Source: an uncultured Bacteroidales bacterium (GTDB lineage: Bacteria > Bacteroidota > Bacteroidia > Bacteroidales > Paludibacteraceae). Taken from it: a stretch of DNA of 64,000 nt. The first letter of the stretch is position 1. Every line of letters starts with the position of its first letter. Shown one piece after another: positions 14,847-42,113 of this stretch. The notes below the pieces were generated by a model. That model had not been told where the DNA came from and did no database searches. It worked only from the letters and a program-made list of their open reading frames with translations. A program made the position numbers and the translations under genes. The stretch lies in NCBI GenBank assembly GCA_902774075.1, contig CACYGT010000001.1, positions 7,820-71,819 of the forward strand, written 5' to 3'.

Positions 14847-17800
14847 ATGAAAAAGTTTCTACTACTGACCATGGTTTCGATGATGACCGTCTTCGCGATG
14901 GCTATCGGTCGTAACGATGGTAGTACCAAAGCCAATGCTATTGACTTTGATTGGGACGGCGGTCATGTACAAGTAGGCGACACGGTCAAATGGTACCGTG
15001 TGGATCTTACTCCGCTCTACTCGGAGGAGAATCCGGCGCTGACACTGTATATGGTCAGCCAGAGCTTGTTGGACACGGTAGATTGTAAATTGAATGCTAC
15101 TGTGGCAGGCCAGTCTGAGGAGAAAACGTACACGATCATGCCGGGTAAGACAATGAGCTGGACGGCTAACGCCAGTATGCTCGTTCGTCTGAAACAGACG
15201 GAGGTGTACCTCACCCTTAAGACGACGCCGAGAAATGCAGATTCCGAGTCTGCACGTATCAAGCTGAGTGCTAAAGTGTATGATGCGATCGACTTGGATG
15301 AAGCTTGTAAGAATGCGAAGCTCTTCGACTGGACGAATGGTATCACGCAGAGCCGCGGCGCTATGCAGTGGTTCAAAGTGGACCTGAAGAAAGCGAAAGC
15401 AAAAGACAGTGTGGATGTCTGCATTGCTATCACGAACACCGGTTCGGGTACGCTCAACCTGCGTGCCGGTCAGTCGCTTGACTGCCCGTCATCCGGTATG
15501 ACCAAACGTTCCTTCGTGATCGCTGCCGGCAAGACCGTTTACGACACCATTCCTCTGTCCATGATTAAGAGTGTGGCTGCTGACGAACTCTATGTCACGT
15601 TCGACAACAACCAGCCTATCGCTGTGAAAGCTAACTATGTGGCTTGGCCGCCCGTGCCACTGCTCGATTGCGATGCAGTGACCTGGGATTCGCTGCCCGT
15701 AGTGACCAACCAGGTTCTAAACCCGGGTAAACACTACCTCAAGATCAATGTGCAGCAGATGAATGACTCGGCGAAGTATGAGCCGGAGTTCACCTTCCGC
15801 AACAATGGTGATGCAGATGCTACCATCAACCGTAAGATGTCGTTCGAGTGCCCTGTATGGGGTTGGCAAGGCGATGAGATTACGCTGGCTGCAGGCGCAG
15901 AGAAGATTGAGGTAATCAAGAAGAACGTAGTTGAGGGTATCACCGTACCGTATATCTACCTCGTTATCGAGAACGACCAGCCGTTTACCCTTATCGGCCG
16001 CTACAAACACGTTCGTGAAGGTAAGGCTTGTAAGAGTAATATCGACTTCAACTGGGAGACCGGTCATACGCAGGACGGTAAGACAACTCAATGGTATGCT
16101 ATCGACGTAACAGAGGCGAAAGATGATATCCGCGACATCAAGATCACGGTGAAGAACCTCGGTTATGACAAAGCAACAGTTAGTGCTTCCTTGGCATTCA
16201 GCTGCCCGTATATCGACCTTCAGGAGATCACTCGTACCTTGGCAAAAGATGAGTCGATTACCCGTAAGATCGGTTATTCGACCTACGCCATGATGTCCGA
16301 TACTATCTGGGTAGGTGTTACCACCGACCAGGATATCCAGATCTTGGCTGACACCTCTTCTATTGAGACCAAACCGGCAGACCCGAACGATCCGTGTTTG
16401 GAGGCTATTGAGTTCAACTGGGAAGACGGCGCAAAGCAGAGCGCAAATGATACCGTATGGTATAAGCTCGGTATGGACGAAGTACGTGAGTTGCAACAGT
16501 TCCCGACCATTTACGTACGTAACCTGAGCTCGGAGAACGAGGCAACGATCTACGGCGCATTGTCGTTGGAGTGCCCGGATACGATTCCTAACCAGGAGCG
16601 TAGTCTGAAGATTGCGAAGAACGGAACCTACTCGAAGAAGATCTCGCGTAACATGTTTGAGAACATCAAGCAGGATACGATCTATCTGCGCGTGGTTGCT
16701 ACAGAGGATGTTGCCTTTGAGATCCGTCTGACCGAAGAGGCCGAAGGTGCAAGCTGTACCTCTGCGATCCGTTTCAACTGGGTATCCGGTAATGACCAAG
16801 CAGCTAACGCGAACCTCTGGTACGCAGTTGACCTGCGCGAGGCTATGCAGAGCAACAAGGATATCCATATCAAGGCGGTGAACAAGGGTGATACCGTTTG
16901 TAAGGGTACAGTCGAGATGGCCTATACTTGTCCTTACGAGTCCACTCAGTCGGCTGGCTTTAAGATCAACCCGAAAGACTCTGTTACCAAGACGATGCCG
17001 CACAGCTCGCTGGAGACCTTGACCGACAGCACGCTTTATGTACGTGTATATGGTAACACACCACTGCACTTCGATGTACGCATGGTAGATCCTGCTCATT
17101 TCGATACCATCGAGTGCGCTGAGATTGAAGCTAACCTCACCGAGCTGAAGTGGAACACACTGTATACCCAGAAGACAGATACCGCTTGGTACCTGCTGAA
17201 GAAAGAGTCCTTGGATTCGCTCTTTAGCGGCGAAGTAACTCCGGAGGCACATGCATGGGATACACTCGGTCGTCCGATTAAGATTAAGGCTGAGATTGCA
17301 TACCACTGCCCGGTTACTGCTACGATGATGAACAAGCAGATCACTCTCACGGACGGTGAATATGTGAAGAAGATCGACCCGAGTACGGCTCAACAGCTGG
17401 CCGGTCGTGACACGGTTCTCGTTCGTATCATCACCGATGGCGCATTCAAGTTCGAGGCTCGCCTCGTATCGCCGTGGACCGGTAACAAACCGAAAGACGC
17501 TATCCGTATCGATTGGAACAAAGAGTACGTACAAGAGGCGAACACCATCATGTGGTATCGTATCCGTTCGTACGAACTCAAGCAACTGGAGAATCTGGAC
17601 GGCAGAAGCCTCCACGTCTTCTCGAAGAACCATGGAGGTAAAGCTACCATGGAGGTGGCTGTATATGAGGACATCGCTCAGACCGACAAAGAGGATATGA
17701 TCGAGTACTACACCGGTCGCAAAGAGGTTCGTAAGATCCCTGCAGGTCACACCGTAAGCAGAAATATCCCGTCGTACGTGATCAAGGGCTTGGCTGACAA

Positions 17801-27918: not shown

Positions 27919-29934
27919 TTACCATATTGACACCCTTTCTTCCGGGGCGATATACATAGGCGAGTCTTCTTGGACATCCCATGCCTCGTACCATGCGCCG
28001 ATCTGCGGCAGGGCGCCGTTCACACGCCATCTGCCGAGCGAGTGCGGGTCAGATTTTGTGCGCTGGAGAATCTCCTCGGGGCGGATATTTCCCGCCCATA
28101 CGTTGGCGTACGCGAGGAAGAAACGCTGTGCCGGCGTAAAGCCATCGCGTTTCTGTAAGCGCTCGGTCTCCGGCTTTGCGGCTTCGTTGTTGCAGAACGC
28201 CAGATAGGACACCTGCAAGCCTCCGTGGTCGGCGATGTTCTCACCCAGCGTGAAGGCGCCGTTAGCGTGCACACCCGGAGCTACCTCGATCTTGTTGAAC
28301 GCCTCCTCCATCACTTTTGTGCGGGCGTCGAAAGCCGCCTTGTCTTCGGCTGTCCACCAATTGACCATGTTACCGTCCTTGTCGAACTGACAGCCTTGGT
28401 CGTCAAAGCCGTGCGTCATCTCATGACCGATCACCACACCGATAGCGCCGTAGTTGAACGCATCGTCTGCGCGCATATCAAAGAACGGATACTGAAGAAT
28501 ACCGGCCGGGAAGCATATCTCGTTGGACGAGGGGTTATAGTACGCGTTCACGGTCTGCGGGGTCATATACCACTTGGTCTTATCCACCGGTTTGCCTAAG
28601 AAACTGAGGCTGTAGTCCTGCTCGAACTTCGCTGCACGCTGGAGGTTGGCATAGTAGGTGTCAGCTGCATTGATATCCAGCGCCGTATAGTCGCGCCAGG
28701 TGTCCGGATAGCCGATCTTAATGGTCATCGCGTTCAGTTTCCCGAGTGCTTTGGCTTTGGTCTCAGCCGACATCCACGCGAGGTTCTCAATACGTTGACC
28801 GAGCGCCTTCTGGAGATTATGTACCAGTGCCAGCATACGCGCTTTGTTCTCCTCCGGGAAATACTTCTTGACGTACATCTGTCCTACCGCTTCGCCGAGT
28901 GTTCCGTTGACCATGCTCACCGCACGTTTCCACAGCGGACTCGGTTCTTCTTTTCCGGACAGAACGCGGCCGTAGAAATCAAACGAAGCCATGAAGATCT
29001 CATTGGTCAGGAACGATGCTGCACCGTCAATGACCTGCCAAGCGAACAAGGTCTTGAGGTCCTCGAGCGGTTCGTCAGCCAGCATCCGACCGGCTTCCTG
29101 GAGATGAGGGATCTGACCGACAGAGAGGCTGTCGAGCGTAACACCCATCGCGAAGAAATACGTTCTCCAATCGACCTGCGGAACCAGTTTCTGCAGTTCG
29201 TCGATAGACAGCTTGTTGTAGTTACGCTGCGGGTCGCGGAGCTCTACATTGGAGTAAGCGGCTTTGGCCAGACGGGTCTCCATACGCAGAACGGTCTGCG
29301 CACGCGCAGCGGCATTGTCATACTCAAAGAGCGTGAACAGCTTCTCGATATATTTGACATACGCCTCGCGGATCGAGCGGGTGTGCTCGTCCTCGTCCAG
29401 GTAGTACTCTTTCTCTCCGAGTGCAAAACCGGCCTGGTACTCGTTGAGGATGTTCATGGAGCTGTTCATCGCATCCGCGTCCACGTACATCGCCCATAAC
29501 TGGAAGTCCATGGCTTTACCGAGCACCTCGGATAACTGGTCGCGGGACTGAATAGCGTCTATCTCAGCGAGGGTCGGTAACACCGGAGCGATACCTTCCC
29601 GGTCACGGCGCGCCGTGTCCATCGCGAGGTTGTAGACATCGCCTATCTTCTGCGCAATAGAGCCCTGCTCGTGTTGCTTGGCAGCAATGTCTTTGATGAG
29701 TCCATTCACTTGCTCCAAGTTCTGCAAGCCCAGTTTGTCAAACGAGCCGAAGCGGCTATACTCCGGGGTAAGAGGGTTGTTGGCCATCCAGCCGCCACAA
29801 GCGAACTGATAGAAATCGCATTGTGGAGCGGCGGTCATGTCTAAGTTAGCCAGGTCAATACCTGTTGTCTGTTGTTTAGTGCATGCTGTTGTCATAAGTA
29901 CAAACGCTGCAAGCGTAAAAAGAATTTTTTTCAT
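27919..29934 (-). CDS. pepO: M13-family zinc metallo-endopeptidase lipoprotein (PepO / neprilysin-like)
   Basis: Start MKKILFTLAAFVLMTTAC (lipobox) at 29934. HEMTHGFD zinc motif, NAYY, GENIADHGG, C-terminal ..ERVSIW. The longer ORF-track N-terminus (to 30201) overlaps the feoB-like gene and is rejected. Confidence 0.9.
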   Translation of the reverse strand: MKKILFTLAAFVLMTTACTKQQTTGIDLANLDMTAAPQCDFYQFACGGWMANNPLTPEYSRFGSFDKLGLQNLEQVNGLIKDIAAKQHEQGSIAQKIGDVYNLAMDTARRDREGIAPVLPTLAEIDAIQSRDQLSEVLGKAMDFQLWAMYVDADAMNSSMNILNEYQAGFALGEKEYYLDEDEHTRSIREAYVKYIEKLFTLFEYDNAAARAQTVLRMETRLAKAAYSNVELRDPQRNYNKLSIDELQKLVPQVDWRTYFFAMGVTLDSLSVGQIPHLQEAGRMLADEPLEDLKTLFAWQVIDGAASFLTNEIFMASFDFYGRVLSGKEEPSPLWKRAVSMVNGTLGEAVGQMYVKKYFPEENKARMLALVHNLQKALGQRIENLAWMSAETKAKALGKLNAMTIKIGYPDTWRDYTALDINAADTYYANLQRAAKFEQDYSLSFLGKPVDKTKWYMTPQTVNAYYNPSSNEICFPAGILQYPFFDMRADDAFNYGAIGVVIGHEMTHGFDDQGCQFDKDGNMVNWWTAEDKAAFDARTKVMEEAFNKIEVAPGVHANGAFTLGENIADHGGLQVSYLAFCNNEAAKPETERLQKRDGFTPAQRFFLAYANVWAGNIRPEEILQRTKSDPHSLGRWRVNGALPQIGAWYEAWDVQEDSPMYIAPEERVSIW

Positions 29935-31604
29935 ATAAATAATAAACCTATTTGATAGACGAGGAACGAGATCAGCCATGCGAGGATCAGGGAGTGAAAG
30001 ACGGTGAACCACGCCCACTGTTTGCCGGCTTCCCGATGGAGCGTGGCGATGGTGGCTACGCAGGGGAAGTAGAGTAGCACGAAGAGCATGAAGCTGAATG
30101 CCGTCAGCGGTGTAAAACCGGCCGCGGTGATGTCTCCACCATAGAGGATAGCCAGGGTCGAGACGATGGCTTCTTTTGCGGGCAGACCGGTCAGGAGACA
30201 TACCGACATCTTCCAGTCAAAGCCCAGCGGCTCCATGAGCGGGGAGACGAACTGACCGATAGCAGCCAGATACGAGTGCTCCAGGTCGTTGAGATCCTGC
30301 GTCGGGAAATACTCGAGTGCCCAGATGATGATAGATGCCCACAGGATGACCGTGCATATCTTCTGCAGATAGTCCGCCACGCGCTCCCAGATATGCGCCG
30401 CCGTGTTACGCGCCTTGGGGATACGGAACTCAGGTAACTCGTTGACCGTATCGTCATTATCCTGTTTGAACCACCGCGTGCGCTTCATGATGATGGCGAA
30501 AATCACGGACAGACAGATACCTATCGCATAGAGCGAGATCATCACCAGCGCTTTGTGGCGCTCAAAGAACGTATCCACGAACAGCATATAGACCGGCAGA
30601 CGGGCCGAGCAGGACATGAACGGCACCATGAGCATGGTCAGCACACGGTCCTTGGGGTTCTGGATGTCACGCGCGGCCATGATCGCCGGCACGTTGCAAC
30701 CGAAGCCCATCAGCATCGGAATAAAACTACGTCCGTGCAAGCCCACGCGGTGCATGATCGTATCCATGATAAACGCCTCACGGGCCATGTATCCGGAGTC
30801 CTCCATGAGCGAGATAAAGAAGAAGAGGATGATGATGTTTGGTACGAACGCGAGCACTGCGCCCACTCCGGCTAACACGCCGTCTATCAGCAGTGAGGAG
30901 AACCAACCTTCGGCCATGACACCTCTCGCCCATTCGCTCAACCAATCCACGCCGCTCTCAATCCACTCCTGCGGATACGCACCGAGCGTGAACGTGCACC
31001 AGAATACGAGATAGAGGATAGCCATCATGATCGGGAAACCCAACCACGGGTTCGTCAGCACCTTATCGATCTTCTCCAGCCGCGTCTGATGCTTGTCATC
31101 TTTCGCATGCGTGAGCGTCTCTGTCAAAATACCGTGCACATACGCGCGGTAGGTATCTTCATCACCCTCCTGGTCACGCAGGTGGTAGATAGGGTGCGCC
31201 TTGGATACAGGCCGAGCTGCCACTTCCTGCAGCAGTGACAAGCAGTTAGGCAGACCGTAGTTCAGTCGCACGGAGACACGGCAGGTAGGTACACCGATCA
31301 GTTGCTCCAACTTAGGGATATTGAGCGAGTGGTCGGTCTTGAGCAAGAGGTCATACCGACCGATGGCCAGAACGATTTTCTCCTGCTCATCGATGATATG
31401 GGGCGTGAGCATCAGGGACTCCTCCAGGCGTGTGGAGTCCACCACCTGCAGGATCACATCATAGGAATGGCCATGTAGCTCGTCGGAGTTATATAACTCC
31501 GTGAAATGCATCGCTCGCTGTTCCTTATCCGCCAAGGATTGTAAGGCTTGGCTCAGGGAACTTTTTCCGCTCTGCGGAAGCCCTATGACCGCAATCTGAA
31601 TCAC
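29931..31604 (-). CDS. feoB: FeoB-family transporter (557 aa) with a shortened, degenerate N-terminal G domain
   Basis: Membrane core matches FeoB signatures (NPWLGFPIMMAILYLVF, FVPNIIILFFFISLMEDSGYMAREAFIMD, GFGCNVPAIMAARD, MSCSARLPVY). The N-terminus keeps only a P-loop (GLPQSGKS). GTG start; TGA overlaps the pepO ATG. Confidence 0.8.
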   Translation of the reverse strand: MIQIAVIGLPQSGKSSLSQALQSLADKEQRAMHFTELYNSDELHGHSYDVILQVVDSTRLEESLMLTPHIIDEQEKIVLAIGRYDLLLKTDHSLNIPKLEQLIGVPTCRVSVRLNYGLPNCLSLLQEVAARPVSKAHPIYHLRDQEGDEDTYRAYVHGILTETLTHAKDDKHQTRLEKIDKVLTNPWLGFPIMMAILYLVFWCTFTLGAYPQEWIESGVDWLSEWARGVMAEGWFSSLLIDGVLAGVGAVLAFVPNIIILFFFISLMEDSGYMAREAFIMDTIMHRVGLHGRSFIPMLMGFGCNVPAIMAARDIQNPKDRVLTMLMVPFMSCSARLPVYMLFVDTFFERHKALVMISLYAIGICLSVIFAIIMKRTRWFKQDNDDTVNELPEFRIPKARNTAAHIWERVADYLQKICTVILWASIIIWALEYFPTQDLNDLEHSYLAAIGQFVSPLMEPLGFDWKMSVCLLTGLPAKEAIVSTLAILYGGDITAAGFTPLTAFSFMLFVLLYFPCVATIATLHREAGKQWAWFTVFHSLILAWLISFLVYQIGLLFI

Positions 31605-31632
31605 GCTTTTCTTTTTCTCTTAATTGCGGCTG

Positions 31633-31664
31633 CAAAATTACTGCTTTTTCTGCACATACACAAT
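31633..31664 (-). promoter_or_regulatory. Sigma-A type promoter for the feoB-like/pepO unit (minus strand)
   Basis: Reverse complement reads ATTGTGTATGTGCAGAAAAAGCAGTAATTTTG. The -7 box TAATTTTG is at 31633-31640. Confidence 0.55.
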
Positions 31665-31714
31665 ACCTATTTATGGGGATTTTATGCAAATAGCGCGATA
31701 AAGTGCACATAAGT

Positions 31715-31746
31715 CTTGCATATTTCAAAAAAATGTAGTAAATTTG
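31715..31746 (+). promoter_or_regulatory. Sigma-A type promoter for the six-gene signalling operon
   Basis: CTTGCATAT at 31715-31723, A7 spacer tract, TAAATTTG at 31739-31746. The ATG is at 31765. Confidence 0.6.
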
Positions 31747-31764
31747 CAGCGAATTTGAACGAAT

Positions 31765-33798
31765 ATGGCTCAGAAGAAGAATCTTTCAGGTATATGGATC
31801 ATGGTGGTAGCCGCCATTTTGCTGGAGGCTATCTCGTGCGTGATGTATTTCACCAGTCGTGCGGCAATCAAGCATGAAGCCGAACAGCTGGCCAAGACAG
31901 AGTTGCGCAAAGCAGAACTGGAGATCGAGAATCATACCATCGAGATGGAGACGGCCGTGAAGACCTTGGTGATGCTGAGCGAGAAACACATCGATTATCC
32001 GGATTCTATTTTCTCCGCTACGCGCCTGGCTGTCCGGACACTGAACGACTACACCAGCATGGCGGTAGCGTTTGTTCCCAATTACTACCGCAAGCAAGGC
32101 CGATGGTTCGAGGCGTGCAGCAGCCGTATCACAGAAGACAGCGTTTATACGCGCCAGATAGGCAGTGCGGAGCACGATTATTTCCAAGCCGAGTGGTATC
32201 AGAACGGTTTCTTGCGTGACAGCTGCTGGTGGAGCGAGCCGTATCTGGATGATTCGGGTTCGAAGACATGGGTGGTCAGTTGTTCGCACCCGGTACGTGA
32301 CCGCAAAGGCGAGATCGTGGCCGTTGTATGCTGCGACTTATCCTTGGATTATTTGCAAAAGGTATCGGAATACCTGCAGATCTACCCCAAGAGCCACTAT
32401 TCGATTCATTCGCATGACGGATTGGCTATTGTTCCTACTCCCGACACGATCCCCGGCGCCAAGTATCAGATCTACAACGAAGAGATCGATGCCACCGGTT
32501 GGCAGATATCAATTATCATTCCGGAAGATGTCATTTTTGCCGATTTGAACCGCATGGGATTGATCATCGGAATACTGATGATTATCGGTTTGGCGGTGCT
32601 GGCGTTGATGGTATGGCATTCGGCTATCACTACTCGTAAGATGATTGATTTTGCGGAAAAGAACCAACGTATAGAAGGCGAACTGGAAGTGGCACAGACG
32701 ATACAGAATGCGATGTTGCCGAAGGTCTTCCCGCCCTTTACGGACCGCCCGGATATCAACCTCTATGGTATGGTCGATCCCGCCAAGGAGATAGGCGGTG
32801 ACCTATATGATTTCTATATCCGTCACGGCAAGCTCTTCTTCTGCGTAGGTGACGTGAGCGGCAAGGGTGTTCCCGCGGCGCTGGTGATGGCGATGACGCG
32901 TTCGCTATTCCGCAGTATCACGGCGCACGAGGAGGCACCGGACTTGATCATGCGCAAGATGAACAGGGCGTTGGTGGACCAGAATGCACAGAATATGTTC
33001 CTTACTTTTTTCCTGGGTATTCTGGATTGCGAAACGGGACGGTTGGATTATTGTAATGCAGGGCATAACGCGCCTGTTTTGATTCGTCGTGAAGGCACCA
33101 AGATGGAGCATTTTGAGGATCTGATATCTAACTTACCGTTAGGTGTAGAGACGGATTTTGTTTTCAAGGCGCAACACACACAAATGGCCTACGACGACGT
33201 GCTGTTCCTCTATACGGACGGACTGACGGAGGCGGAGAAGAGCGACCACGAGCAGTACGGCGAAGAGCGGATGTACAAGGCCCTGGAGGCCGACGAGGCA
33301 AGAGACCTATCGCCGCGTGAACTGGTGGCGCACATGCAGCACGAGGTGGAGCAGTTCGTGGACGGCGCCCCGCAGAGCGATGATTTGACGATGTTGGTAG
33401 TTCGCTATCAGAAGCCCTCTCTGTTCATGCGCAACGACATCCAGCAGATTCCTACCTTGGCCGAATGGATCGAAGGATTGGATCTCCCGACCGAACTGAG
33501 TATGCCGATTAACCTGGCGCTGGAGGAGGCGGTGAGCAACGTGATGCTGTACGCCTATCCCGGGCAGCACGGACAGGTCTTGATCGAGTTCTCCAAAGAG
33601 AAGAGTATCATCTTCACTATCACCGACAGCGGAATACCGTTTGACCCCACTCAACAACGCGAGGCCGACACGACCCTGTCGCTGGAAGAGCGGCAGATAG
33701 GCGGATTGGGTATTCACCTCGTACGCCAATTGATGGACGAGATCTATTATCGCCGCGAAGATAACAAAAACGTATTGACTTTAATTAAACATATATGA
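31765..33798 (+). CDS. Membrane sensor fusion: extracytoplasmic domain + PP2C/SpoIIE-type Ser phosphatase + RsbW/SpoIIAB-type anti-sigma-like Ser kinase (HATPase)
   Basis: 677 aa with two TM segments (IWIMVVAAILLEAISCVMYF and GLIIGILMIIGLAVLALMVW) flanking a ~250-aa domain. PP2C motifs GGDLYDF, GDVSGKGVPAALVMA, YTDGLTEA, SDDLTMLVV. C-terminal ATPase motifs EEAVSNVMLYAY (N-box), DSGIPFDP, GGLGIHLVRQLMD. Confidence 0.85.
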   Translation: MAQKKNLSGIWIMVVAAILLEAISCVMYFTSRAAIKHEAEQLAKTELRKAELEIENHTIEMETAVKTLVMLSEKHIDYPDSIFSATRLAVRTLNDYTSMAVAFVPNYYRKQGRWFEACSSRITEDSVYTRQIGSAEHDYFQAEWYQNGFLRDSCWWSEPYLDDSGSKTWVVSCSHPVRDRKGEIVAVVCCDLSLDYLQKVSEYLQIYPKSHYSIHSHDGLAIVPTPDTIPGAKYQIYNEEIDATGWQISIIIPEDVIFADLNRMGLIIGILMIIGLAVLALMVWHSAITTRKMIDFAEKNQRIEGELEVAQTIQNAMLPKVFPPFTDRPDINLYGMVDPAKEIGGDLYDFYIRHGKLFFCVGDVSGKGVPAALVMAMTRSLFRSITAHEEAPDLIMRKMNRALVDQNAQNMFLTFFLGILDCETGRLDYCNAGHNAPVLIRREGTKMEHFEDLISNLPLGVETDFVFKAQHTQMAYDDVLFLYTDGLTEAEKSDHEQYGEERMYKALEADEARDLSPRELVAHMQHEVEQFVDGAPQSDDLTMLVVRYQKPSLFMRNDIQQIPTLAEWIEGLDLPTELSMPINLALEEAVSNVMLYAYPGQHGQVLIEFSKEKSIIFTITDSGIPFDPTQQREADTTLSLEERQIGGLGIHLVRQLMDEIYYRREDNKNVLTLIKHI

Positions 33799-34097
33799 AA
33801 ACAGAAATTGTAGAATCCGGTAACCAACTTATTGCCCGTTTCTCCGGTCGTTTGGACACCGCGGCCGCTGTGCAGACGGCAGAGGATGTCAAGCCTTTGC
33901 TGGAAGCCGCTAACAAGGAGATTATCCTGGACTGCACCGCCTTGGAGTATATCTCTTCGTCGGGTCTGCGTATCTTCCTCAGCATCCGCAAGGAGGCTGC
34001 AACCAACGGCAGTAAGGTGATTGTACGCAACATCAACGCCGACATCCGCCAAGTATTCATGATGACGGGATTTGTCAGTCTCTTCGTAATCGAATAA
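33795..34097 (+). CDS. STAS-domain anti-sigma-factor-antagonist-like protein (RsbV/SpoIIAA family)
   Basis: 100 aa. LDCTALEYISSSGLRIFL carries the conserved phosphorylatable Ser. ATGA overlap with the upstream gene. Confidence 0.85.
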   Translation: MKTEIVESGNQLIARFSGRLDTAAAVQTAEDVKPLLEAANKEIILDCTALEYISSSGLRIFLSIRKEAATNGSKVIVRNINADIRQVFMMTGFVSLFVIE

Positions 34098-34099
34098 GT

Positions 34100-35146
34100 A
34101 TGGATTTACATTGCGAAATGATGCTGGAGGAGTTCCAATCCGCGTTACCGGAATTGGAGCGTCTTCGGGAAGAGGTGCTGACCAAGCTGCGTGAGGCGTT
34201 GGAGCGCAACGAGATGCTGGTGACTACCATCGAAGGACGTGTGAAGACACAGAAATCGTTGGAAGGAAAGCTTGCGTTGAAGGGCGGTAAGTATGCCACA
34301 TTGAGTGACGTGACCGACCTGGTGGGCGCACGTATCGTGACCTTCTATACGGACGATGTGGACCGTATCGCCGCGATGGTGGAGCAGTTGTTTGAAGTGG
34401 ACTGGGACAACTCGGTGGACAAACGGATGTTGCACCAGTTGGACACGTTTGGCTACAACTCGTTGCATTATGTCTGTAAGTTACCCGGTTACAACTACCG
34501 GTTTGAGTTACAGTTACGCACGACCCTGCAGCACGCCTGGGCATCGATCAACCACGATATCGGTTACAAGACCGGCGTGGAGATCCCGCGCGAGTACCTG
34601 AGGCGTATCAACCGTCTGTCGGGACTGCTGGAGATGGCGGACGATGAGTTCAGCCGTATCCGTACGGAGATCACGGACTACCGTCGCCGCGTGCAGGCCT
34701 TGGTGCAAAACGGCAAGTTGGACGACGTGCAGTTAGACGGCGATACCTTCGGCAGTTACTTGCAGGTCCGCCCGTTCGACAGACTCAACAAACGTATTGC
34801 TGCCATCAACCAGGCGGAGATACAGGACGTGCCCCTGAGCCGCTATCTGAGAGTGTTCAAACTGTTGGACTGCAAGACGCTGGGCGATGTCGACCGCATA
34901 CGCAAGCAATATACGGAAGACGCCTACCTGCTGGCGCGGCATCAGTTGGGCAACACCGATCTGGATATCATCTCCTCAGCCGTGGGCGTGCAGAATATAT
35001 GCATCGTCTATATCCTGAATTCAGGAGGTGGCAAATTAGGTATCGTTCGTATGCTGGATGCTATCAACGGACATAATATTCAAAACGATGAACTGGCGGA
35101 GATGATCTATCGTCAGGCCGTCGCATTACCTTTTATCAAACAATAA
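34100..35146 (+). CDS. RelA/SpoT-domain nucleotide pyrophosphokinase (small alarmone synthetase-like) with a ~180-aa C-terminal extension
   Basis: 348 aa. Synthetase signatures: RVKTQKSLEGKL, DLVGARIVTFY, GYNSLHYVCKL, ELQLRTTLQHAWASINHDIGYK. Starts 2 nt after the STAS stop. Confidence 0.85.
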   Translation: MDLHCEMMLEEFQSALPELERLREEVLTKLREALERNEMLVTTIEGRVKTQKSLEGKLALKGGKYATLSDVTDLVGARIVTFYTDDVDRIAAMVEQLFEVDWDNSVDKRMLHQLDTFGYNSLHYVCKLPGYNYRFELQLRTTLQHAWASINHDIGYKTGVEIPREYLRRINRLSGLLEMADDEFSRIRTEITDYRRRVQALVQNGKLDDVQLDGDTFGSYLQVRPFDRLNKRIAAINQAEIQDVPLSRYLRVFKLLDCKTLGDVDRIRKQYTEDAYLLARHQLGNTDLDIISSAVGVQNICIVYILNSGGGKLGIVRMLDAINGHNIQNDELAEMIYRQAVALPFIKQ

Positions 35147-35150
35147 TACA

Positions 35151-35990
35151 ATGGAACCTATTCTAATTGATTTGAATGATTACGAGCGCACCGGTGAAGG
35201 AGCCAACGGCGCTAGTTATAACCACAAAACGGATAAGAACATCATGATGAAGATGTACTTCCGTAATTTCGAAGCGGCTAAACTGGAGTTGGAGGTAGCC
35301 CAAAAAGTGTATGCCTTGGGAATCCCGACACCGGAGCCGGGTGACCTGGTAACGGACGGAGAAAGAATGGGTATCCGTTTCCGCCGTATCGAGGGGAAGA
35401 AATCCTATTCCCGTGCCTGCGGAGATAATCCGGAGATGGCGCCTGAGTACGGACGTGAGTTTGCGCAACTGTGCAAGAAACTGCATTCTACCCATGTGGA
35501 TACTACGCAGTTTGAAAGCGTCAAGGACCGGTTATATAAAATGTTAGCCGACAATCCGGATTTTACGGCAGAGCAGAAACAGAAACTCCATGATTATATT
35601 GCCGCTGCGCCCGAAGTTGACACAGCGATACACGGTGACCTGCAGTTCGGAAACGGTATCTTCACCGAGAAAGACGGAGTCCGTACCCCTTATTTCATTG
35701 ACCTTGGTGATTTCTGCTACGGCTATCCGATGTTTGATATCGGCATGGTGTATCTGTGTTGCTGCCTGAATGATGAGGCATGGACAATGGAGGTCAACCA
35801 CATGACCAATGCTACCGCAGCGCGTTTCTGGGATGGTTTTGCGGAAGAATATTTCGGTCCGGACGCTGATATGGAGAAGGTGATGAAAGAGGTGAAGATC
35901 TATGCCGGTCTGAAAACGATTCTTATTGAGCGAGACACGCACTGTCCAATGCCGCAGTTCCGGGCGATGCTGGAAGGAACGATTTATTAA
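35151..35990 (+). CDS. APH/choline-kinase-fold phosphotransferase (eukaryotic-like kinase fold)
   Basis: 279 aa. Gly-rich loop GEGANGASY, catalytic HGDLQFGN, metal-binding FIDLGDF. Confidence 0.75.
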   Translation: MEPILIDLNDYERTGEGANGASYNHKTDKNIMMKMYFRNFEAAKLELEVAQKVYALGIPTPEPGDLVTDGERMGIRFRRIEGKKSYSRACGDNPEMAPEYGREFAQLCKKLHSTHVDTTQFESVKDRLYKMLADNPDFTAEQKQKLHDYIAAAPEVDTAIHGDLQFGNGIFTEKDGVRTPYFIDLGDFCYGYPMFDIGMVYLCCCLNDEAWTMEVNHMTNATAARFWDGFAEEYFGPDADMEKVMKEVKIYAGLKTILIERDTHCPMPQFRAMLEGTIY

Positions 35991-35996
35991 GGGATT

Positions 35997-36590
35997 ATGG
36001 CAAATAAATATTTAGATACCGACCTGCTGGACCGCGCGATCGTTTTTGCTGTCAAGGCGCACCATAACACGGAGCGTCGCGGCAAAGGTTTTCCGTATAT
36101 CGTGCATCCGATGGAGGCGGTGGAGATAGTCGCGAGCATCACACCGGACCAGGAACTGCTGGCTGCTGCGGCTTTGCATGACACGATCGAAGATACAGAC
36201 GTGACGGTGGAGCAAATACGTGCCGAGTTTGGCGAGCGTATTGCAGAGTTGGTGCATGCAGAGAGTGATCAGATTGACGGCGAAGTGTTCACGGGCGGCG
36301 GAAACGAAGAAGAGACCTGGCACGCACGCAAGCAAGCAGCCATAGACCGTTTGGCAGCTGCGCCACATGATGCGAAGATAGTGGCCATGGGCGACAAACT
36401 AAGCAATATGCGGGCTATCTGGCGCGACTATCAGATCAAGGGCGATGAACTATGGTCTATCTTCCACGCCAAAGACAAAGCATCCCACGAATGGCATTAC
36501 CGCGGTCTGGCAGCATCGTTAAGCGAGCTGAGCGATACGTTTGCGTTTCAGGAGTTCGTTCGCCTCATTGATGAGGTGTTTCCTAAATGA
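35997..36590 (+). CDS. HD-domain (p)ppGpp-hydrolase-like protein (small alarmone hydrolase, Mesh1/SpoT-type)
   Basis: 197 aa. AVKAHHNTERRGKGFPYIVHPMEAVEIV...AAALHDTIEDTDVT..FGERIAELVHAESD matches the SpoT/Mesh1 hydrolase HD signature. Confidence 0.8.
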   Translation: MANKYLDTDLLDRAIVFAVKAHHNTERRGKGFPYIVHPMEAVEIVASITPDQELLAAAALHDTIEDTDVTVEQIRAEFGERIAELVHAESDQIDGEVFTGGGNEEETWHARKQAAIDRLAAAPHDAKIVAMGDKLSNMRAIWRDYQIKGDELWSIFHAKDKASHEWHYRGLAASLSELSDTFAFQEFVRLIDEVFPK

Positions 36591-37390
36591 AGATCGTTTT
36601 CGATAAAATAGATAATGCCCGAGACTTGGGCGGTATTGTAGGAGCGGGAGGCCGAGCGATCCGTCCGCACAGGTTGCTTCGTACGGCCCATCTGCATGAC
36701 GCTACCGATGCCGACGTGGCACGACTCAAAGAAGAGTACCAACTCTGCCGTATCTTTGATTTTCGTTCGTTAGGGGAGTTTGAGGCGGTGCCGGACAGAG
36801 AGATAGAAGGTGTACAGCATCATCTGTTGCCTACTATCGACATGCGTGCCGAACAGCAGACCGGCAAACCGATACCGGATGAGGCTTTTCTGGAACTGGA
36901 CCGCCATATCGTTAACTATTCGTTCTATCCGGAAGTGCAGATGATGGCTGCGAATATGTACCCGTCCTTGATACAAAGCGAGTTCAGCCAGTTGCAGTAC
37001 GCCGCTTTCTTACGCTTGATCGTGGAAGCACCGGAAGACGGCGGTATCCTTTGGCATTGCGCACAAGGAAAAGACCGCACCGGTTGGGGTGCAGCCTTCC
37101 TGATGTTCGCTTTGGGAGTGGACAGAGAAACGATTATTACTGATTTCAACGAGAGTAATGAGGCTTATCTGCCGATCGTTACCAAACTGAATAACGATGT
37201 GATTGCCCGCGGAGGAGGAGAAGCGGAGATGGCCGTTATTCAGGCCTTTATGGGTGTCTCTACCCCTAACTTCATCTCCACGCTTGACCTCATTGACCGC
37301 AAGTACGGAGGCATGACGAATTACCTGTATGAGATACTCTGTCTCACGCATGACGATATCCAGTTGTTGCGAAAAAGATACTTGCAATAA
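36587..37390 (+). CDS. CX5R phosphatase of the bacterial tyrosine-phosphatase-like family (Y_phosphatase3-like)
   Basis: 267 aa. NARDLGG near the N-terminus, IFDFRS..E, active site HCAQGKDRTGW. ATGA overlap with the HD gene. Confidence 0.75.
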   Translation: MKIVFDKIDNARDLGGIVGAGGRAIRPHRLLRTAHLHDATDADVARLKEEYQLCRIFDFRSLGEFEAVPDREIEGVQHHLLPTIDMRAEQQTGKPIPDEAFLELDRHIVNYSFYPEVQMMAANMYPSLIQSEFSQLQYAAFLRLIVEAPEDGGILWHCAQGKDRTGWGAAFLMFALGVDRETIITDFNESNEAYLPIVTKLNNDVIARGGGEAEMAVIQAFMGVSTPNFISTLDLIDRKYGGMTNYLYEILCLTHDDIQLLRKRYLQ

Positions 37391-37396
37391 ACCTTC

Positions 37397-39472
37397 TTAG
37401 CCTACCTGACTGCCGTTCTTCACAGGCGCAGTCACCGTAGTCACTACCAACTTACCATCCGCATCTACCGCAGAGAGGATCATTCCCTGCGACTCGATAC
37501 CCATCATCTTACGTGGCGGGAAATTAGCAATGAAGAGCACCTGCTTGCCAACGAGTACCGACGGGTCCGGATAACTCTGTGCGATACCGCTCAAGATCGT
37601 TCGTTCGCCCATACCGTCGTCCAGTTTGAACTGCAGCAGGCGGTCGGATTTCTTGACGTTGGTGCACTCCAGCACGGCCGCTACGCGGATATCCGTCTTG
37701 TCAAACTCATCGATAGTGGTTGGGGCTTTGATAGGCTCGGGACGCCAGTTCTTGAGTGCCTCGGCTTGCGCTGCGGCTTCGTTCTCTTTCTTGATACGCT
37801 CGAGTTTGTCAAGTTGGGCCTGGATCGCCGCATCTTCGATCTTCTCAAAGAGCAGGCTGATCTCACCCAGTTGTTGGCCGGCAGCCAGCAGGTCGATACG
37901 ACCCAGATCATCCCATCCGATGCGGGCATCCAGTTGCAGCATATTGCGCAGTTTATGAGACGAGAACGGCAGGAAGGGCTCAAAAGCGACCGCCAGATTA
38001 GCCGCTATCTGAAGCGCCAAATGGAGTACGGTAGCCGTACGGTCCATATCCGTCTTGGCCAGTTTCCAAGGTTCGGTGTCGGCGAGGTATTTGTTACCGA
38101 TACGGGCAAGGTTCATTGCCTCCTTGAGGGCATCGCGGAAACGGAAATTCTCTATCAACTGCTCCAAGGTAGCCTTGACGTTCTTGAACTCTTCGATGGT
38201 CGCATTATCGTACTCGGTCAGTTCTCCGCACGCTGGTACGCGGCCTTCAAAATACTTACTCGTGAGCACGAGCGCACGGTTGACGAAATTACCGTAGATA
38301 GCCACCAACTCGTTGTTGTTACGCGCCTGGAAGTCCGCCCAGGTGAAGTCATTGTCTTTGGTCTCCGGAGCATTGGCGGTAAGCACATAACGCAGCACGT
38401 CTTGTTTGCCTGGGAAATCGTCGAGGTATTCATTGAGCCATACCGCCCAGTTGCGGGACGTGGAGATCTTGTCGCCCTCGAGGTTGAGAAACTCGTTGGA
38501 CGGCACATTGTCCGGCAAGTTGTATCCTTGCGCCTTGAGCATAGCGGGGAAGACGATGCAGTGGAAGACGATGTTATCTTTGCCGATGAAATGGAGCATT
38601 CTCGTATCTTCCTGCTTCCACCATTTCTCCCAGTTACCGAATTTCTCCGGCTCTTTCTCGCATAGCTCGATGGTGTTGGAGATATAGCCGATGGGGGCAT
38701 CGAACCACACGTACAGCACTTTCCCTTCCGCACCTTCTACCGGCACAGGAATACCCCACTCGAGGTCACGGGTCACGGCACGCGGCTTGAGTCCGCCGTC
38801 CAACCAGGACTTACACTGTCCATAGACGTTCGAGCGCCACTCTTTATGATTATTGAGGATCCAGTCCTCGAGCCATGCCTGGTATTGATCCAGCGGCAAG
38901 TACCAGTGTTTGGTGGCTTTCTTGGTCAGCGCATTTCCGGTCTCGGCGTTATAGGGGTTTATCAACTCATCCGGTGAGAGTGTTGCACCGCATTTCTCGC
39001 ACTGGTCGCCGTATGCGCCCAAGGAATGACAGCGCGGGCACTCGCCGCGGATGTTACGGTCGGTGAGGAAATGTCCGGTCTCGGGGTCATAGAACTGCTC
39101 CGAGGTCTCTTCTACGAACTGGCCGGCATCGTACATCTTACGGAAATAGTCCGAAGCGAACTTATGATGTATCTCAGACGTCGTACGAGAGTAGATATCG
39201 AAAGATACCCCGAAGTCCGCGAACGAGCGCTTAATCAGTTCGTGATAACGGTCCACAACCTGCTGGGTGGTGATCCCCTCTTTGCGGGCACGAATGGTCA
39301 CAGGAACACCGTGCTCGTCACTACCGCAAACGAATAATACTTCTTTACCTTTCAAACGCATGTAGCGGGCGTAGATGTCCGCCGGAACGTAAACTCCTGC
39401 CAGGTGACCGATATGCACCGGACCATTGGCATAGGGAAGAGCTGCTGTAATTAAAGTGCGATTAAATGCCAT
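37397..39472 (-). CDS. metG: Methionyl-tRNA synthetase
   Basis: 691 aa. HIGH-type motif ([14 protein letters not shown]), Zn knuckles CPRC..CEKCG, KISTS (KMSKS-type) motif, C-terminal tRNA-binding (EMAP-like) domain. Confidence 0.95.
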
Positions 39473-39614: not shown

Positions 39615-40667
39615 GTGAAAAATACGAATATTTTTATAGTGTTTGCATTCGTACTCTGTTGTTCATGGAGTACGTTGGCAGCCCAGCAGAGAGCAGCCGC
39701 AGTGTCTAGTTATATAGGCGCTCAGGCTCAGGTAGGCGAATGGTCTTTATTACCTTCCGAGAGCAAATTCGGTCCGAGCGTCGGTGCGTCCGGAGGTGTG
39801 GGGTTTGTATATGAACTGCAGGTGGGTCGTACGTATCGTCCGACACGTTTCTTGTTGGATGTAGGTCTGAGCCTTGTCGGCGGACAGACGGCTTTTACGC
39901 AGAACGGCCTGGCGGTGGATACGCTCTTGAGAAATCAGGAAGATATATTATACAATCAGCAAGGTTGGAAGTTCGATTATGTGTACGAAAGGGCCTATCG
40001 TCGTGATGCGTACAACAACATCGCCTTACAGATCCCGGTGATGGTGGGTCTGCAGCATAAGAAGTTCTATATGCTCGCCGGCGTCAAGTTAGGCGCTAAC
40101 ATGTGGACCAAGACGAACTTAAGCGCTGTCTACAATACCTACGGTCAGTATGCAATGCTGGAGGGAGACGGAATTGTGCGGGACAACAAGCGATTCCAGT
40201 TTTTCGAGGGATATCAATTGGATACGGTCACGACGACCAATTTCAATATGAATGTAGATTTGAGTTTCGAGATTGGTTGCCGCCTCGGTGTAATAGCCAG
40301 CGAGACCGGCTACGATGTGCCGAAACGTAAGACCGAATGCCGCTTAGCGCTTTTCGCAGACTATGGCCTGACGGACATCCATAAAGCAGGAAAGAATAAG
40401 GCGCTGGAGATCCCGTCCAAATATGATACGGATCCGTTCTCTGATAATTATGTCTATGACAAGCAGAACATGGTGAACAGCCTCGTGCTGAACGACATCA
40501 TGTCCACTTCTAGTTTTGCGAATGCGGTAAAGAATCTGGTGGTAGGCGTGAAACTCACGATCCTCTTCCGCGCTCCGGAAAAAGGCAAGTGCGTGCTCTG
40601 TAATGAGGCTTACCGCAGCTCAGTCCTCCACTATCCCGGCGGAGGAGGAGTGCAGTACGAGGAATAA
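39615..40667 (+). CDS. Putative outer-membrane beta-barrel protein (350 aa)
   Basis: GTG start, then signal peptide KNTNIFIVFAFVLCCSWSTLAAQ. Alternating-hydrophobic strands rich in G/Y. The 3' end overlaps the convergent cdaA by 48 nt. Confidence 0.55.
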   Translation: MKNTNIFIVFAFVLCCSWSTLAAQQRAAAVSSYIGAQAQVGEWSLLPSESKFGPSVGASGGVGFVYELQVGRTYRPTRFLLDVGLSLVGGQTAFTQNGLAVDTLLRNQEDILYNQQGWKFDYVYERAYRRDAYNNIALQIPVMVGLQHKKFYMLAGVKLGANMWTKTNLSAVYNTYGQYAMLEGDGIVRDNKRFQFFEGYQLDTVTTTNFNMNVDLSFEIGCRLGVIASETGYDVPKRKTECRLALFADYGLTDIHKAGKNKALEIPSKYDTDPFSDNYVYDKQNMVNSLVLNDIMSTSSFANAVKNLVVGVKLTILFRAPEKGKCVLCNEAYRSSVLHYPGGGGVQYEE

Positions 40668-41405
40668 CTCGTCTTCCTTCACCTCTCGTATTTTCCCTTC
40701 AGCGGCCACAGATATATGACCGTTCTCTTCGGACACAACGATACAGGTTGCGTCCGTTTTTTCTGCAAGACCTAAGGCTGCGCGGTGACGCAGACCGTAA
40801 TGCTGCGGTATCGTCTGGTCTTTGCTGACCGGTAGTATACAAGCCGCAGCGATCATCTTTCCGTCACGAATGATCAGCGCGCCGTCGTGCAAGGGGGTGT
40901 TCTTGAAGAAGATGTTCTCGATCAGTCGTGCCGATACGTTGGCATCCAAGCGCTCGCCGGTATCCGCTATCTCCTTCAGACTTCCTCCTCCGGCCAACAC
41001 GATCAGTGCACCCGTCTTGGTGGAGGCCATATGACGGCAGGCCTGCGTGATCTCCAAGATCTGTTGACGCGCACGGGGGTCTTCTTCGGTCGTTCTCGGT
41101 TGGAAGATCTTCCAGGACGAGAAACGCGAACCGATACGGTAAAAGAACATACGTATCTCTTCTTGGAAGATGACGATCAGGGCGATTGCGCCGACAGATA
41201 TGATGCGGTCAAAGAGCGCGCCGGTAAGGTCCAGTTTGAACACAAACGAAACAAGGAACCATACAATGATAAACGCCAAGATACCCCAGAAGAGGTTGGA
41301 GGCACCTGTTCGCCGCAAGAGTCGATAGGTCTCATATAGAATAATAGCGACCAACAGGATATCTATCAGATCTTTGAATCCAAAGGAAAAAGCTAAGAGT
41401 TGCAT
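40620..41405 (-). CDS. cdaA: Diadenylate cyclase CdaA (c-di-AMP synthase)
   Basis: 261 aa. Three N-terminal TM helices and a DAC domain (GALIVLAGG, TPLHDGALIIRDGKMIAAACILPVS, GLRHRAALGLAEKTDATCIVVSEENG). Confidence 0.9.
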   Translation of the reverse strand: MQLLAFSFGFKDLIDILLVAIILYETYRLLRRTGASNLFWGILAFIIVWFLVSFVFKLDLTGALFDRIISVGAIALIVIFQEEIRMFFYRIGSRFSSWKIFQPRTTEEDPRARQQILEITQACRHMASTKTGALIVLAGGGSLKEIADTGERLDANVSARLIENIFFKNTPLHDGALIIRDGKMIAAACILPVSKDQTIPQHYGLRHRAALGLAEKTDATCIVVSEENGHISVAAEGKIREVKEDELFLVLHSSSAGIVED

Positions 41406-42094
41406 AAGTCAAATATTTTTATCGTTTGCCGCGTGGCGGCTACATCATGTGTTCGTAATATGGTTGCGCCGTGCTCCAAGGCATACATCTGCAGGGCTTG
41501 GGTGGCATTGAGACAGGTCTCCGGAGTCAAACCTAAAGGTTTGTACAGCATCGACTTGCGACTCACACCTACCAAGACAGGTCTATTGTATGCCTTTAAC
41601 TCGTCTATTCGCCTCAAGCACGCATAATCGGCCTCTACCCCACCGCAGAACCCGAGTCCCGGGTCCAGAATCCATTTCGCACTCTGTGTGACGTTTAGGA
41701 CATCCAGTTTCTCGTATCTCCCCCGGAAGGTCAATATATACGGAACGTCATAACGCTGTACCACCTCGTACATCTCGTCACATCCGCCGGATATGTCATT
41801 GATGATCAGGGGACCGAACTGTTCCAGCACGCGGCGGGCTATCTCCACTCGGAAAGTGTCCACGGACAAACAGGCATCTGGGAAGTTCTCTTTGATCGTA
41901 CGCAAAGCCGGCTCGAGACGACGCCACTCTTCCTCCTCGTCTACGGGGGTGCTACCGGGTCGGGTCGAGCAAGCGCCCATATCCAACATATCCGCTCCGT
42001 CCTCCAATGCCTGACGTGCCCACTCCAAGACCTTATCGTGCGTCAACCTCGATGCCGCATAAAAACTATCCGGCGTCACGTTCCCTATGGCCAT
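41393..42094 (-). CDS. folP: Dihydropteroate synthase
   Basis: MAIGNVTPDSFYAASR.., DMLDMGACSTRPGS, INDISGG. The start is set at the ATG at 42094. The ORF-track GTG at 42109 lies within 5 nt of the -7 box and would be upstream of the TSS. Confidence 0.85.
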   Translation of the reverse strand: MAIGNVTPDSFYAASRLTHDKVLEWARQALEDGADMLDMGACSTRPGSTPVDEEEEWRRLEPALRTIKENFPDACLSVDTFRVEIARRVLEQFGPLIINDISGGCDEMYEVVQRYDVPYILTFRGRYEKLDVLNVTQSAKWILDPGLGFCGGVEADYACLRRIDELKAYNRPVLVGVSRKSMLYKPLGLTPETCLNATQALQMYALEHGATILRTHDVAATRQTIKIFDLCNS

Positions 42095-42113
42095 TATTTG
42101 TGCTTTCACGGCA

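Follow-up and report, generated by a model that had tools for sequence, protein, structure and literature searches.

Partner switches whose output is not a sigma factor are already known, as are proteins that combine a kinase and a phosphatase acting on a STAS protein (SypE) and switches that control the cyclases producing cyclic di-GMP (c-di-GMP). In HptB–HsbR–HsbA/HsbD and SiaABCD of Pseudomonas aeruginosa, and in BgrSTUWV/BgrR of Sinorhizobium meliloti, a phosphorylation-controlled STAS-type protein regulates a diguanylate cyclase (PMC8457831). SypE of Vibrio fischeri combines in a single polypeptide the kinase and the phosphatase for the STAS protein SypA; this switch acts on something other than a sigma factor, and the serine that becomes phosphorylated lies near residue 56 (PMC8256260). 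For most non-sigma partner switches the output is not known, and a review of STAS proteins lists none that is an alarmone (PMC8256260). The post-translational control of small alarmone synthetases (SAS), and the reason why bacteria carry them alongside long RSH enzymes, are poorly understood; no SAS was listed for the Bacteroidia by Atkinson et al. (2011; PMC3153485). Here, we describe a cassette of six genes (g1–g6) in a stretch of 64,000 nucleotides from an uncultured Bacteroidales bacterium of the Paludibacteraceae (contig CACYGT010000001.1, positions 7,820 to 71,819; referred to as the window). The cassette encodes a membrane sensor with kinase and phosphatase domains, a STAS protein, a SAS and three further enzymes. 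It is probably, although by no means certainly, a ligand-gated partner-switching module with a SAS rather than a sigma factor as its output, and it offers a testable link between such switches and SAS control.

Organization of the cassette

The six open reading frames (ORFs) lie on the + strand at exactly the coordinates given in a preliminary description of the window, which was made from the sequence alone. Their junctions, read again from the sequence, are also those reported there: ATGA overlaps of 4 nt at g1/g2 and g5/g6, with gaps of 2, 4 and 6 nt elsewhere. The genes are packed as in an operon, and expression as a single transcript is predicted from this arrangement. The predicted domains of all six proteins exceed the Pfam gathering thresholds; Pfam and NCBIfam profile searches bore out every domain that had been proposed, and the motifs that had been quoted are all present. 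The features of the cassette are as follows.

31765–37390, + strand: cassette of six ORFs, g1–g6
31765–33798, + strand: g1, membrane sensor, 677 residues (Pfam; RsbW-, SpoIIAB- and SiaA-like NCBIfam matches; hydropathy)
32032–32361, + strand: g1 residues 90–199, MCP-like PDC/dCache domain (MCP-like_PDC_1; PF22673, 6.8e-18; weak PF02743)
32824–33408, + strand: g1 residues 354–548, PP2C/SpoIIE phosphatase domain (PF07228, 1.2e-51)
33457–33789, + strand: g1 residues 565–675, RsbW/SpoIIAB-type Ser kinase domain, HATPase_c_2 (PF13581, 2.6e-22)
33795–34097, + strand: g2, single-domain STAS protein of the anti-sigma antagonist type, 100 residues (PF01740, 1.3e-17; TIGR00377, 1.6e-18)
34100–35146, + strand: g3, SAS, 348 residues (PF04607, 3e-18)
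34700–35143, + strand: g3 C-terminal domain, residues ~201–348 (~145 residues), with neither a Pfam match nor a solved-structure match
35151–35990, + strand: g4, APH-fold (TIGR02172-like) kinase, 279 residues (PF01636, 1e-17; TIGR02172, 2e-67)
35997–36590, + strand: g5, small alarmone hydrolase (SAH; HD_4, Mesh1/SpoT-type), 197 residues (PF13328, 1.1e-18)
36587–37390, + strand: g6, CX5R phosphatase (Y_phosphatase3, PtpB-like; PTP), 267 residues (PF13350, 4.4e-53)

Conservation across Bacteroidales

Related loci were collected in a genome scan with one genome per species, which yielded 595 loci, and the best 80 were kept (L008–L087). Each window protein was searched against these 80 by tblastn, and the orthologues were extracted and aligned. 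Across 45–83 species-level orthologues, all catalytic and phospho-acceptor positions show no or almost no variation. In a Paludibacteraceae-like clade the six genes stand in the same order in about 50 species of rumen Bacteroidales/Paludibacteraceae represented by metagenome-assembled genomes, with SAS proteins that are 59–85% identical and with median intergenic gaps of 8–19 nt. Occasional losses affect g4 (e.g. L015 and L017), g5 (e.g. L049) and g6 (e.g. L045, L047, L053 and L054). None of the 80 loci has the FeoB, methionyl-tRNA synthetase (MetRS) or M13-peptidase neighbours found in the window, and the cassette is therefore kept as a unit amid changing surroundings; the flanks of L001 and L005 are also unlike each other. 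Recurrence of the arrangement with different flanks in about 50 species-level genomes is far beyond chance. The possibility that the genes are adjacent in this genome only is decisively dismissed by these species, in which the neighbourhood survey also finds STAS, RelA_SpoT and HD_4 genes together.

A STAS gene lies at or near the SAS gene in 77 of the 80 loci. In two of the exceptions (L013 and L084) the contig begins at the SAS gene or a short way before it; in the third (L085) about 8 kb of upstream sequence is free of STAS matches and a gene for a PP2C–kinase sensor lies downstream. Prevotella loci, with SAS proteins that are 50–55% identical and have intact catalytic residues, retain kinase, STAS and SAS alone. 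The kinase is encoded there either as a stand-alone protein beside the STAS gene or within a Cache–HAMP–PP2C–kinase sensor a few kilobases upstream, with transporter genes between, and no SAH gene is found inside flanks of about 8 kb. In another Bacteroidales clade (L062 and L087) the order is shuffled to SAS–SAH–kinase–STAS–PTP, with other permutations in L080 and L082. The g1 kinase domain is 41–62% identical to the stand-alone kinases of the Prevotella and L062-type loci. No non-switch gene other than SAS accompanies the kinase and STAS genes through all three locus types and the shuffling.

Some loci show further peculiarities. Two tandem STAS genes precede the SAS gene in L060, where the Prevotella variant occupies 7359–7982 and 9088–9696 (similar in L061–L081). 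In L062 (2198–5530) and L087 (4637–7975), loci with no nearby PP2C gene, a protein of ~1110 residues overlaps the SAS start codon; it was considered as a sensor phosphatase and rejected, its similarity being weakly AsmA-like.

The kinase and the SAS also occur as a single protein. In-frame fusions of an RsbW-type HATPase_c_2 domain to a SAS of the g3 subfamily, 521 residues long, form three diverged clusters (P0125, P0271 and P0272; mutual identity 81–82%) drawn from NCBI and JGI sources. The g1 kinase domain is ~45% identical to the kinase domain of these natural fusions. Two genomic contexts are available, both from the same metagenome assembly (GCA_024712465.1), while the third cluster comes from JGI.

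L088, 6001–7566: HATPase_c_2–SAS fusion gene, kinase boxes and SAS motifs intact
L093, 2282–3847: HATPase_c_2–SAS fusion gene, kinase boxes and SAS motifs intact

No STAS gene stands beside the fusion in L088 (6 kb upstream and 1.3 kb downstream) or in L093 (2.3 and 8 kb, respectively). A different fusion, of SAS to HD_4 (P0151; L095, 1208–2794), was seen on a 3.3-kb contig; its order, synthetase then hydrolase, is the reverse of that in long RSH enzymes.

From the three locus types, the shuffling and the fusion it follows that the invariant core consists of kinase, STAS and SAS, the other genes being recurrent and dispensable. The six-gene unit of the preliminary description accordingly stands in part: its kinase, STAS and SAS genes are the conserved core, and its APH, SAH and PTP genes are clade-specific accessories. 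The joint conservation of these core genes, their reshuffling and the kinase–SAS fusion also argue for the alarmone output that had been put forward there in place of sigma release.

The same evidence bears on an explanation in which the modules are independent and merely co-transcribed, the switch acting on an unlinked sigma factor or other regulator, or on a GerE-type regulator as in Prevotella, and SAS and SAH simply sharing its promoter, which would co-express alarmone metabolism with the switch. Many partner switches have distal targets, and the target of SypA itself is not known (PMC8256260). Moreover, a conserved gene for a protein of ~170–200 residues with REC-like and GerE/LuxR helix–turn–helix (HTH) domains lies directly 3' of the SAS gene in at least 16 Prevotella loci, and the evidence for contact between the kinase or STAS protein and SAS is indirect, coming from gene adjacency and fusion. 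Against this, SAS alone among the non-switch genes keeps company with the kinase and STAS genes in all three locus types, the kinase has been fused in frame to SAS in three diverged clusters, and the window has no counterpart of the GerE-type gene (no tblastn match below E = 2). We regard independent modules as unlikely.

Sensor and STAS protein

The g1 protein was claimed to be a sensor with two transmembrane (TM) segments and an extracytoplasmic domain, and hydropathy combined with Pfam gives just this order: TM1 (residues ~10–30), the Cache/PDC-like domain, TM2 (residues ~265–287), PP2C and kinase, so that two hydrophobic segments flank the Cache-like domain. The phosphatase and kinase domains are predicted to be cytoplasmic and the Cache-like domain extracytoplasmic because the former two follow TM2. 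The Cache-like domain is presumed to be the ligand input. As in partner switches of the RsbU/V/W type, the PP2C domain carries its metal-binding aspartates (Asp346, Asp363, Asp485, Asp539 and Asp540), which are kept in 54/54 orthologues, and the RsbW-type kinase domain carries the N box (Glu588 and Asn592), the G1 box (Asp621 and Gly623) and the G2 box (Gly646–Gly649), kept in 53/54. The kinase domain matches both the RsbW and SpoIIAB families of NCBIfam below their cut-offs. With SpoIIE and HATPase_c_2 domains both within g1, the predicted STAS kinase and phosphatase do sit in one sensor polypeptide, as had been proposed. In L005 (1–1871) the sensor appears to be divided between a PP2C gene and a second gene, for a kinase of 144 residues, the first stopping at 1434 and the second starting at 1437; the sensor gene is intact in L006, whose SAS is identical to that of L005, and mutation or misassembly is the likely cause.

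The g2 protein scores 66.5 bits against TIGR00377, above the cut-off of 53.45 bits. Its predicted phospho-acceptor is Ser55 (codon 33957–33959), at a position that we take to be that of SpoIIAA Ser58 and RsbV Ser56. Ser54, Ser55, Gly57 and Leu58 are kept in 79/79 orthologues, in agreement with the reading of g2 as a single-domain STAS protein with a phosphorylatable serine in an SSSGL motif, again as in the RsbU/V/W type.

A cognate sigma factor, usually co-encoded with such switches, was not found: no sigma-factor domain occurs among the large ORFs scanned at 22190–45184 or among the called flanking genes of L001–L007. The lack of a nearby sigma factor noted in the preliminary description thus holds in both sets.

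Alarmone synthetase

The RelA/SpoT-type synthetase assignment of g3 is supported by a PF04607 score of 66.6 bits against a cut-off of 27 bits and by an intact active site. Residues 1–200 form a RelQ/RelP-like catalytic domain, with sequence matches to RelQ/RelP entries of the PDB at 2.5e-16 to 8e-9; the N-terminal half aligns with PDB entries 3l9d, 2be3 and 5ded. An AlphaFold2 (AF2) model (pLDDT 92 overall, 95 in the C-terminal domain) was compared with the PDB using Foldseek and matched 5dec and 5ded with a TM-score of ~0.8 relative to the target; 6ewz was matched as well. CapRel was only the 40th fold match and superposed poorly. Arg47, Lys49, Asp73, Arg78, Tyr119, His123, Glu136 and Gln138, comprising the catalytic Arg/Lys, the Asp, the G-loop Tyr and the ExQ motif of a RelQ/RelP-like SAS, are kept in 83/83 sequences. 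This invariance across orthologues indicates that g3 is not a dead enzyme, a possibility that would have spoken against its role as an output. It is predicted to make a (p)ppGpp-type alarmone.

Foldseek found no counterpart of the g3 C-terminal domain in the PDB (best E = 2.5, TM-score 0.22). That it is a recognisable docking domain, sigma-like or of another known kind, was considered and rejected, the model being of high confidence and without a PDB match. A C-terminal domain of ~145 residues is common to the aligned members of the g3 family, which comprises SAS proteins of ~350 residues (7,666 representatives at 50% identity with E <= 1e-3, 936 with E <= 1e-30), and it is also found in stand-alone members from other phyla. 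The four distant relatives that were inspected (37–44% identity) are all stand-alone, with no STAS or kinase neighbours and with one of them in a spore-former context; the linkage of switch and SAS is therefore a derived and maintained trait of a Bacteroidales clade.

These relationships also bear on the proposal that g3 is a toxSAS-type toxin and the SAH its type IV antitoxin, both under sensory control and perhaps serving in abortive infection or defence; a toxSAS-like synthetase with an SAH neutraliser had been raised as an alternative in the preliminary description. Adjacent SAS and SAH genes recall FaRel/ATfaRel, a pair with an SAH as antitoxin (PMC7229694), the cassette has different flanks in different species and the SAS catalytic domain gives a weak, partial PADLOC match to the candidate system PDC-S33 (5e-14). 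The other five proteins give no PADLOC match, however, and the closest relatives of g3 in both sequence and fold are the housekeeping enzymes RelQ and RelP. The Prevotella SAS proteins, with intact active sites, lack an SAH in their flanks, and an adjacent SAH is hence not obligatory; instead of a two-gene pair with an obligatory neutraliser, the unit has six or three genes. Sequence identity follows taxonomy (from the Paludibacteraceae-like clade to Prevotella), consistent with vertical inheritance, and phage or mobile-element genes were not seen in the flanks that were examined. The proposal is disfavoured by these findings and appears very improbable.

Accessory enzymes

The three remaining assignments were each upheld. 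For the APH-fold kinase g4, TIGR02172 gives 227.3 bits, just under the cut-off of 228.2 bits, and PF01636 is matched as listed above; Lys34, His161, Asp163, Asn168 and Asp184 are kept in 51/51 orthologues, and no relative was found among PDB sequences. The gene is present in the Paludibacteraceae-like clade and in L080 and is missing from the Prevotella loci. The Mesh1/SpoT-type hydrolase g5 matches SAH, Rel and MESH1 entries of the PDB (best, SAH 7qoc, 6e-20) and has the HD_4 domain, the His/Asp metal ligands and the ED motif of an SAH, with His37, His61, Asp62, Glu65, Asp66, Asp133 and Asn137 kept in 53/53 orthologues. The CX5R phosphatase g6 matches PDB entries 8dhi (2e-16) and 1ywf (Mycobacterium tuberculosis PtpB, 3e-13); His157, Cys158 and Gln160–Gly166, which include the CX5R Cys and Arg, are kept in 45/45 orthologues. 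Since the PTP gene is translationally coupled to the STAS gene in L062, where no PP2C gene adjoins, we speculate that the CX5R phosphatase also acts on the switch.

The operon sets a synthetase against a hydrolase and a kinase against a phosphatase, and these two pairs could also be read as a phosphometabolite or nucleotide-modification pathway, in which the four enzymes act in sequence on a non-canonical substrate, such as (pp)pApp, a pGpp-type species or another phosphorylated small molecule, while the switch does no more than adjust the flux. Enzymes of the APH fold typically have small molecules as substrates, and RSH-family enzymes use acceptors besides GDP and GTP, giving ppApp or modifying tRNA (PMC7229694, PMC11782079). 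On the other side, the APH and PTP genes are dispensable in Prevotella and variably lost within the core clade, SAS retains the full RelQ/RelP active-site set, and the substrates that the pathway assumes for its enzymes are hypothetical. Such a pathway strikes us as quite improbable.

Proposed mechanism

In the partner-switching model with SAS as output, the Cache-like domain of g1 would sense a small molecule outside the cell and shift the balance between the PP2C phosphatase and the RsbW-type kinase of the same protein. This balance would set the phosphorylation state of Ser55 in the STAS protein, which would in turn decide the binding partners among STAS, kinase domain and synthetase. Two versions may be envisaged. 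The kinase domain might hold and silence the synthetase until unphosphorylated STAS displaces it, following anti-sigma logic, or the STAS protein might itself dock on the synthetase, following the logic of SiaC–SiaD and HsbA–HsbD. The freed or activated g3 would then produce a (p)ppGpp-type alarmone, and the co-encoded HD hydrolase g5 would reset the signal. The APH-fold kinase g4 and the CX5R phosphatase g6 may form a lineage-specific second layer with a module protein or a nucleotide as substrate. The observations behind the model are the identities of the domains, their intact active sites, the tight packing of the genes and the way in which those for kinase, STAS and SAS are kept together, reshuffled and fused; the protein–protein contacts, the direction of regulation, the ligand, the product and the single transcript are what we infer.

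Contact through the kinase domain is given somewhat more weight than contact through STAS, and neither reaches an even chance. The former is favoured because of the natural kinase–SAS fusions, the latter because of the near-universal STAS–SAS adjacency and the precedents of SiaC–SiaD, HsbA–HsbD and BgrV–BgrR. The most specific version of the model, with the RsbW-type kinase as a membrane 'anti-synthetase', release by dephosphorylated STAS upon binding of a ligand to the periplasmic Cache domain, and the APH and CX5R enzymes as a second phospho-control on enzyme or nucleotide, is doubtful; if true, it would provide a ribosome-independent route to (p)ppGpp, gated by an extracellular signal, in Paludibacteraceae-like and Prevotella Bacteroidales of the rumen and gut.

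Several points weigh against SAS as the output of the switch. The link of SAS to the kinase and STAS proteins is indirect, being one of gene adjacency and fusion. STAS may not always be needed, as no STAS gene is near in the fusion clade. The roles of APH and PTP are unexplained by a partner switch, and sequence alone does not tell whether g3 makes (p)ppGpp, (pp)pApp or a product from another acceptor. The C-terminal domain of g3, being shared with stand-alone relatives, does not look like a dedicated docking module. Finally, in Prevotella the switch might in fact act through the protein with REC-like and GerE HTH domains.

Promoter and neighbouring genes

The Bacteroides −7 promoter consensus is TAnnTTTG. 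The promoter that had been placed at 31715–31746 contains a candidate −7 box, TAAATTTG, which ends 18 nt 5' of the g1 ATG inside the 160-nt gap that follows the divergent FeoB gene. The elements around the cassette are as follows.

31739–31746, + strand: candidate Bacteroidetes-type −7 box TAAATTTG, perfect consensus match, read from the sequence
29931–31604, − strand: FeoB-like gene, divergent, bordering the cassette on its 5' side
37397–39472, − strand: MetRS gene, convergent, bordering the cassette on its 3' side

A sigma-70 promoter scan found no + strand site in the cassette; the scan does not model Bacteroidetes promoters and was given zero weight. Terminator-like hairpin/T-run matches within the cassette are at chance level (five found, 5.2 expected), in line with the earlier view that it has no internal terminator. 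An Rfam search of 31000–38000 matched no family.

Other features of the window lie outside the cassette. A gene for a CdaA-type diadenylate cyclase (c-di-AMP synthase) overlaps one for a FolP-like pterin-binding enzyme at 40620–42109 (− strand), 3 kb 3' of the cassette; it is a second nucleotide-messenger gene nearby, and the two are probably an ordinary housekeeping pair. The M13-peptidase ORF (27919–30201, − strand) has an Arg/His-rich N-terminal extension of ~70 residues that overlaps the FeoB-like ORF, and its true start is probably near 29982, at the signal-peptide-like MKKILFTLAAF. A very large ORF of 1728 residues (14847–20033, + strand) is followed by co-oriented ORFs up to 26317, among them those of a TPR protein and of a MiaB-like radical SAM enzyme.

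Comparison with known systems

With RsbU–RsbV–RsbW and SpoIIE–SpoIIAA–SpoIIAB, which control sigma-B and sigma-F in Bacillus, the cassette shares a PP2C phosphatase, a GHKL-type Ser kinase and a phospho-Ser STAS protein with intact motifs. It differs in that its co-conserved partner is an alarmone synthetase and no sigma factor is nearby, and in that g1 fuses phosphatase and kinase in a membrane sensor with a Cache-like input. SypE likewise carries both activities for STAS in one polypeptide. SypE is cytoplasmic, with the order kinase–REC–PP2C, whereas g1 is a two-TM Cache sensor with the order PP2C–kinase and without a REC match in Pfam.

The established control of another nucleotide-messenger synthase by partner switches through STAS-type proteins supports, by analogy, the reading of SAS as the output. 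Like g1, SiaA is a PP2C sensor in the membrane, and g1 weakly matches SiaA in NCBIfam. Unlike SiaABCD, HsbA–HsbD and BgrV–BgrR, however, the cassette has as its output enzyme a RelA/SpoT-family pyrophosphokinase rather than a GGDEF cyclase (no GGDEF domain was found in the cassette with Pfam), adds a hydrolase and a second kinase/phosphatase pair and, through the kinase–SAS fusion, hints at the kinase instead of STAS as the contact partner. The cassette may work like SiaABCD or HsbRA–HsbD, yet it is not a member of that family.

Among alarmone synthetases, g3 has the catalytic fold and active-site residues of RelQ and RelP (SAS1 and SAS2 of Firmicutes). RelQ and RelP are regulated transcriptionally and allosterically; g3, in contrast, adds the C-terminal domain of ~145 residues and sits in a partner-switch operon in a Bacteroidales clade. 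The adjoining SAS and SAH genes resemble toxSAS pairs (FaRel/ATfaRel and related systems; PMC7229694), from which the cassette differs in not being bicistronic, in the dispensability of its SAH (Prevotella), in having a SAS nearest to housekeeping SAS proteins and in showing no defence-system signature in the PADLOC search beyond the partial match of its catalytic domain.

The statement that no characterised system has this wiring holds for the literature searched, which did not cover most subscription-journal papers and in which no connection of a SAS with a partner switch or with a STAS protein came to light; it has to be qualified by the precedents of SypE, HsbA–HsbD, BgrV–BgrR and SiaC–SiaD. 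The conserved unit of sensor, STAS and SAS suggests an undescribed route from an outside signal to a stress nucleotide, in an arrangement kept across many of the Bacteroidales species, Prevotella included, that dominate rumen and gut communities. If the proposed output is correct, a function would be defined for a widespread SAS subfamily with a structurally unmatched C-terminal domain, and partner switching would extend from sigma factors and c-di-GMP cyclases to the nucleotide of the stringent response.

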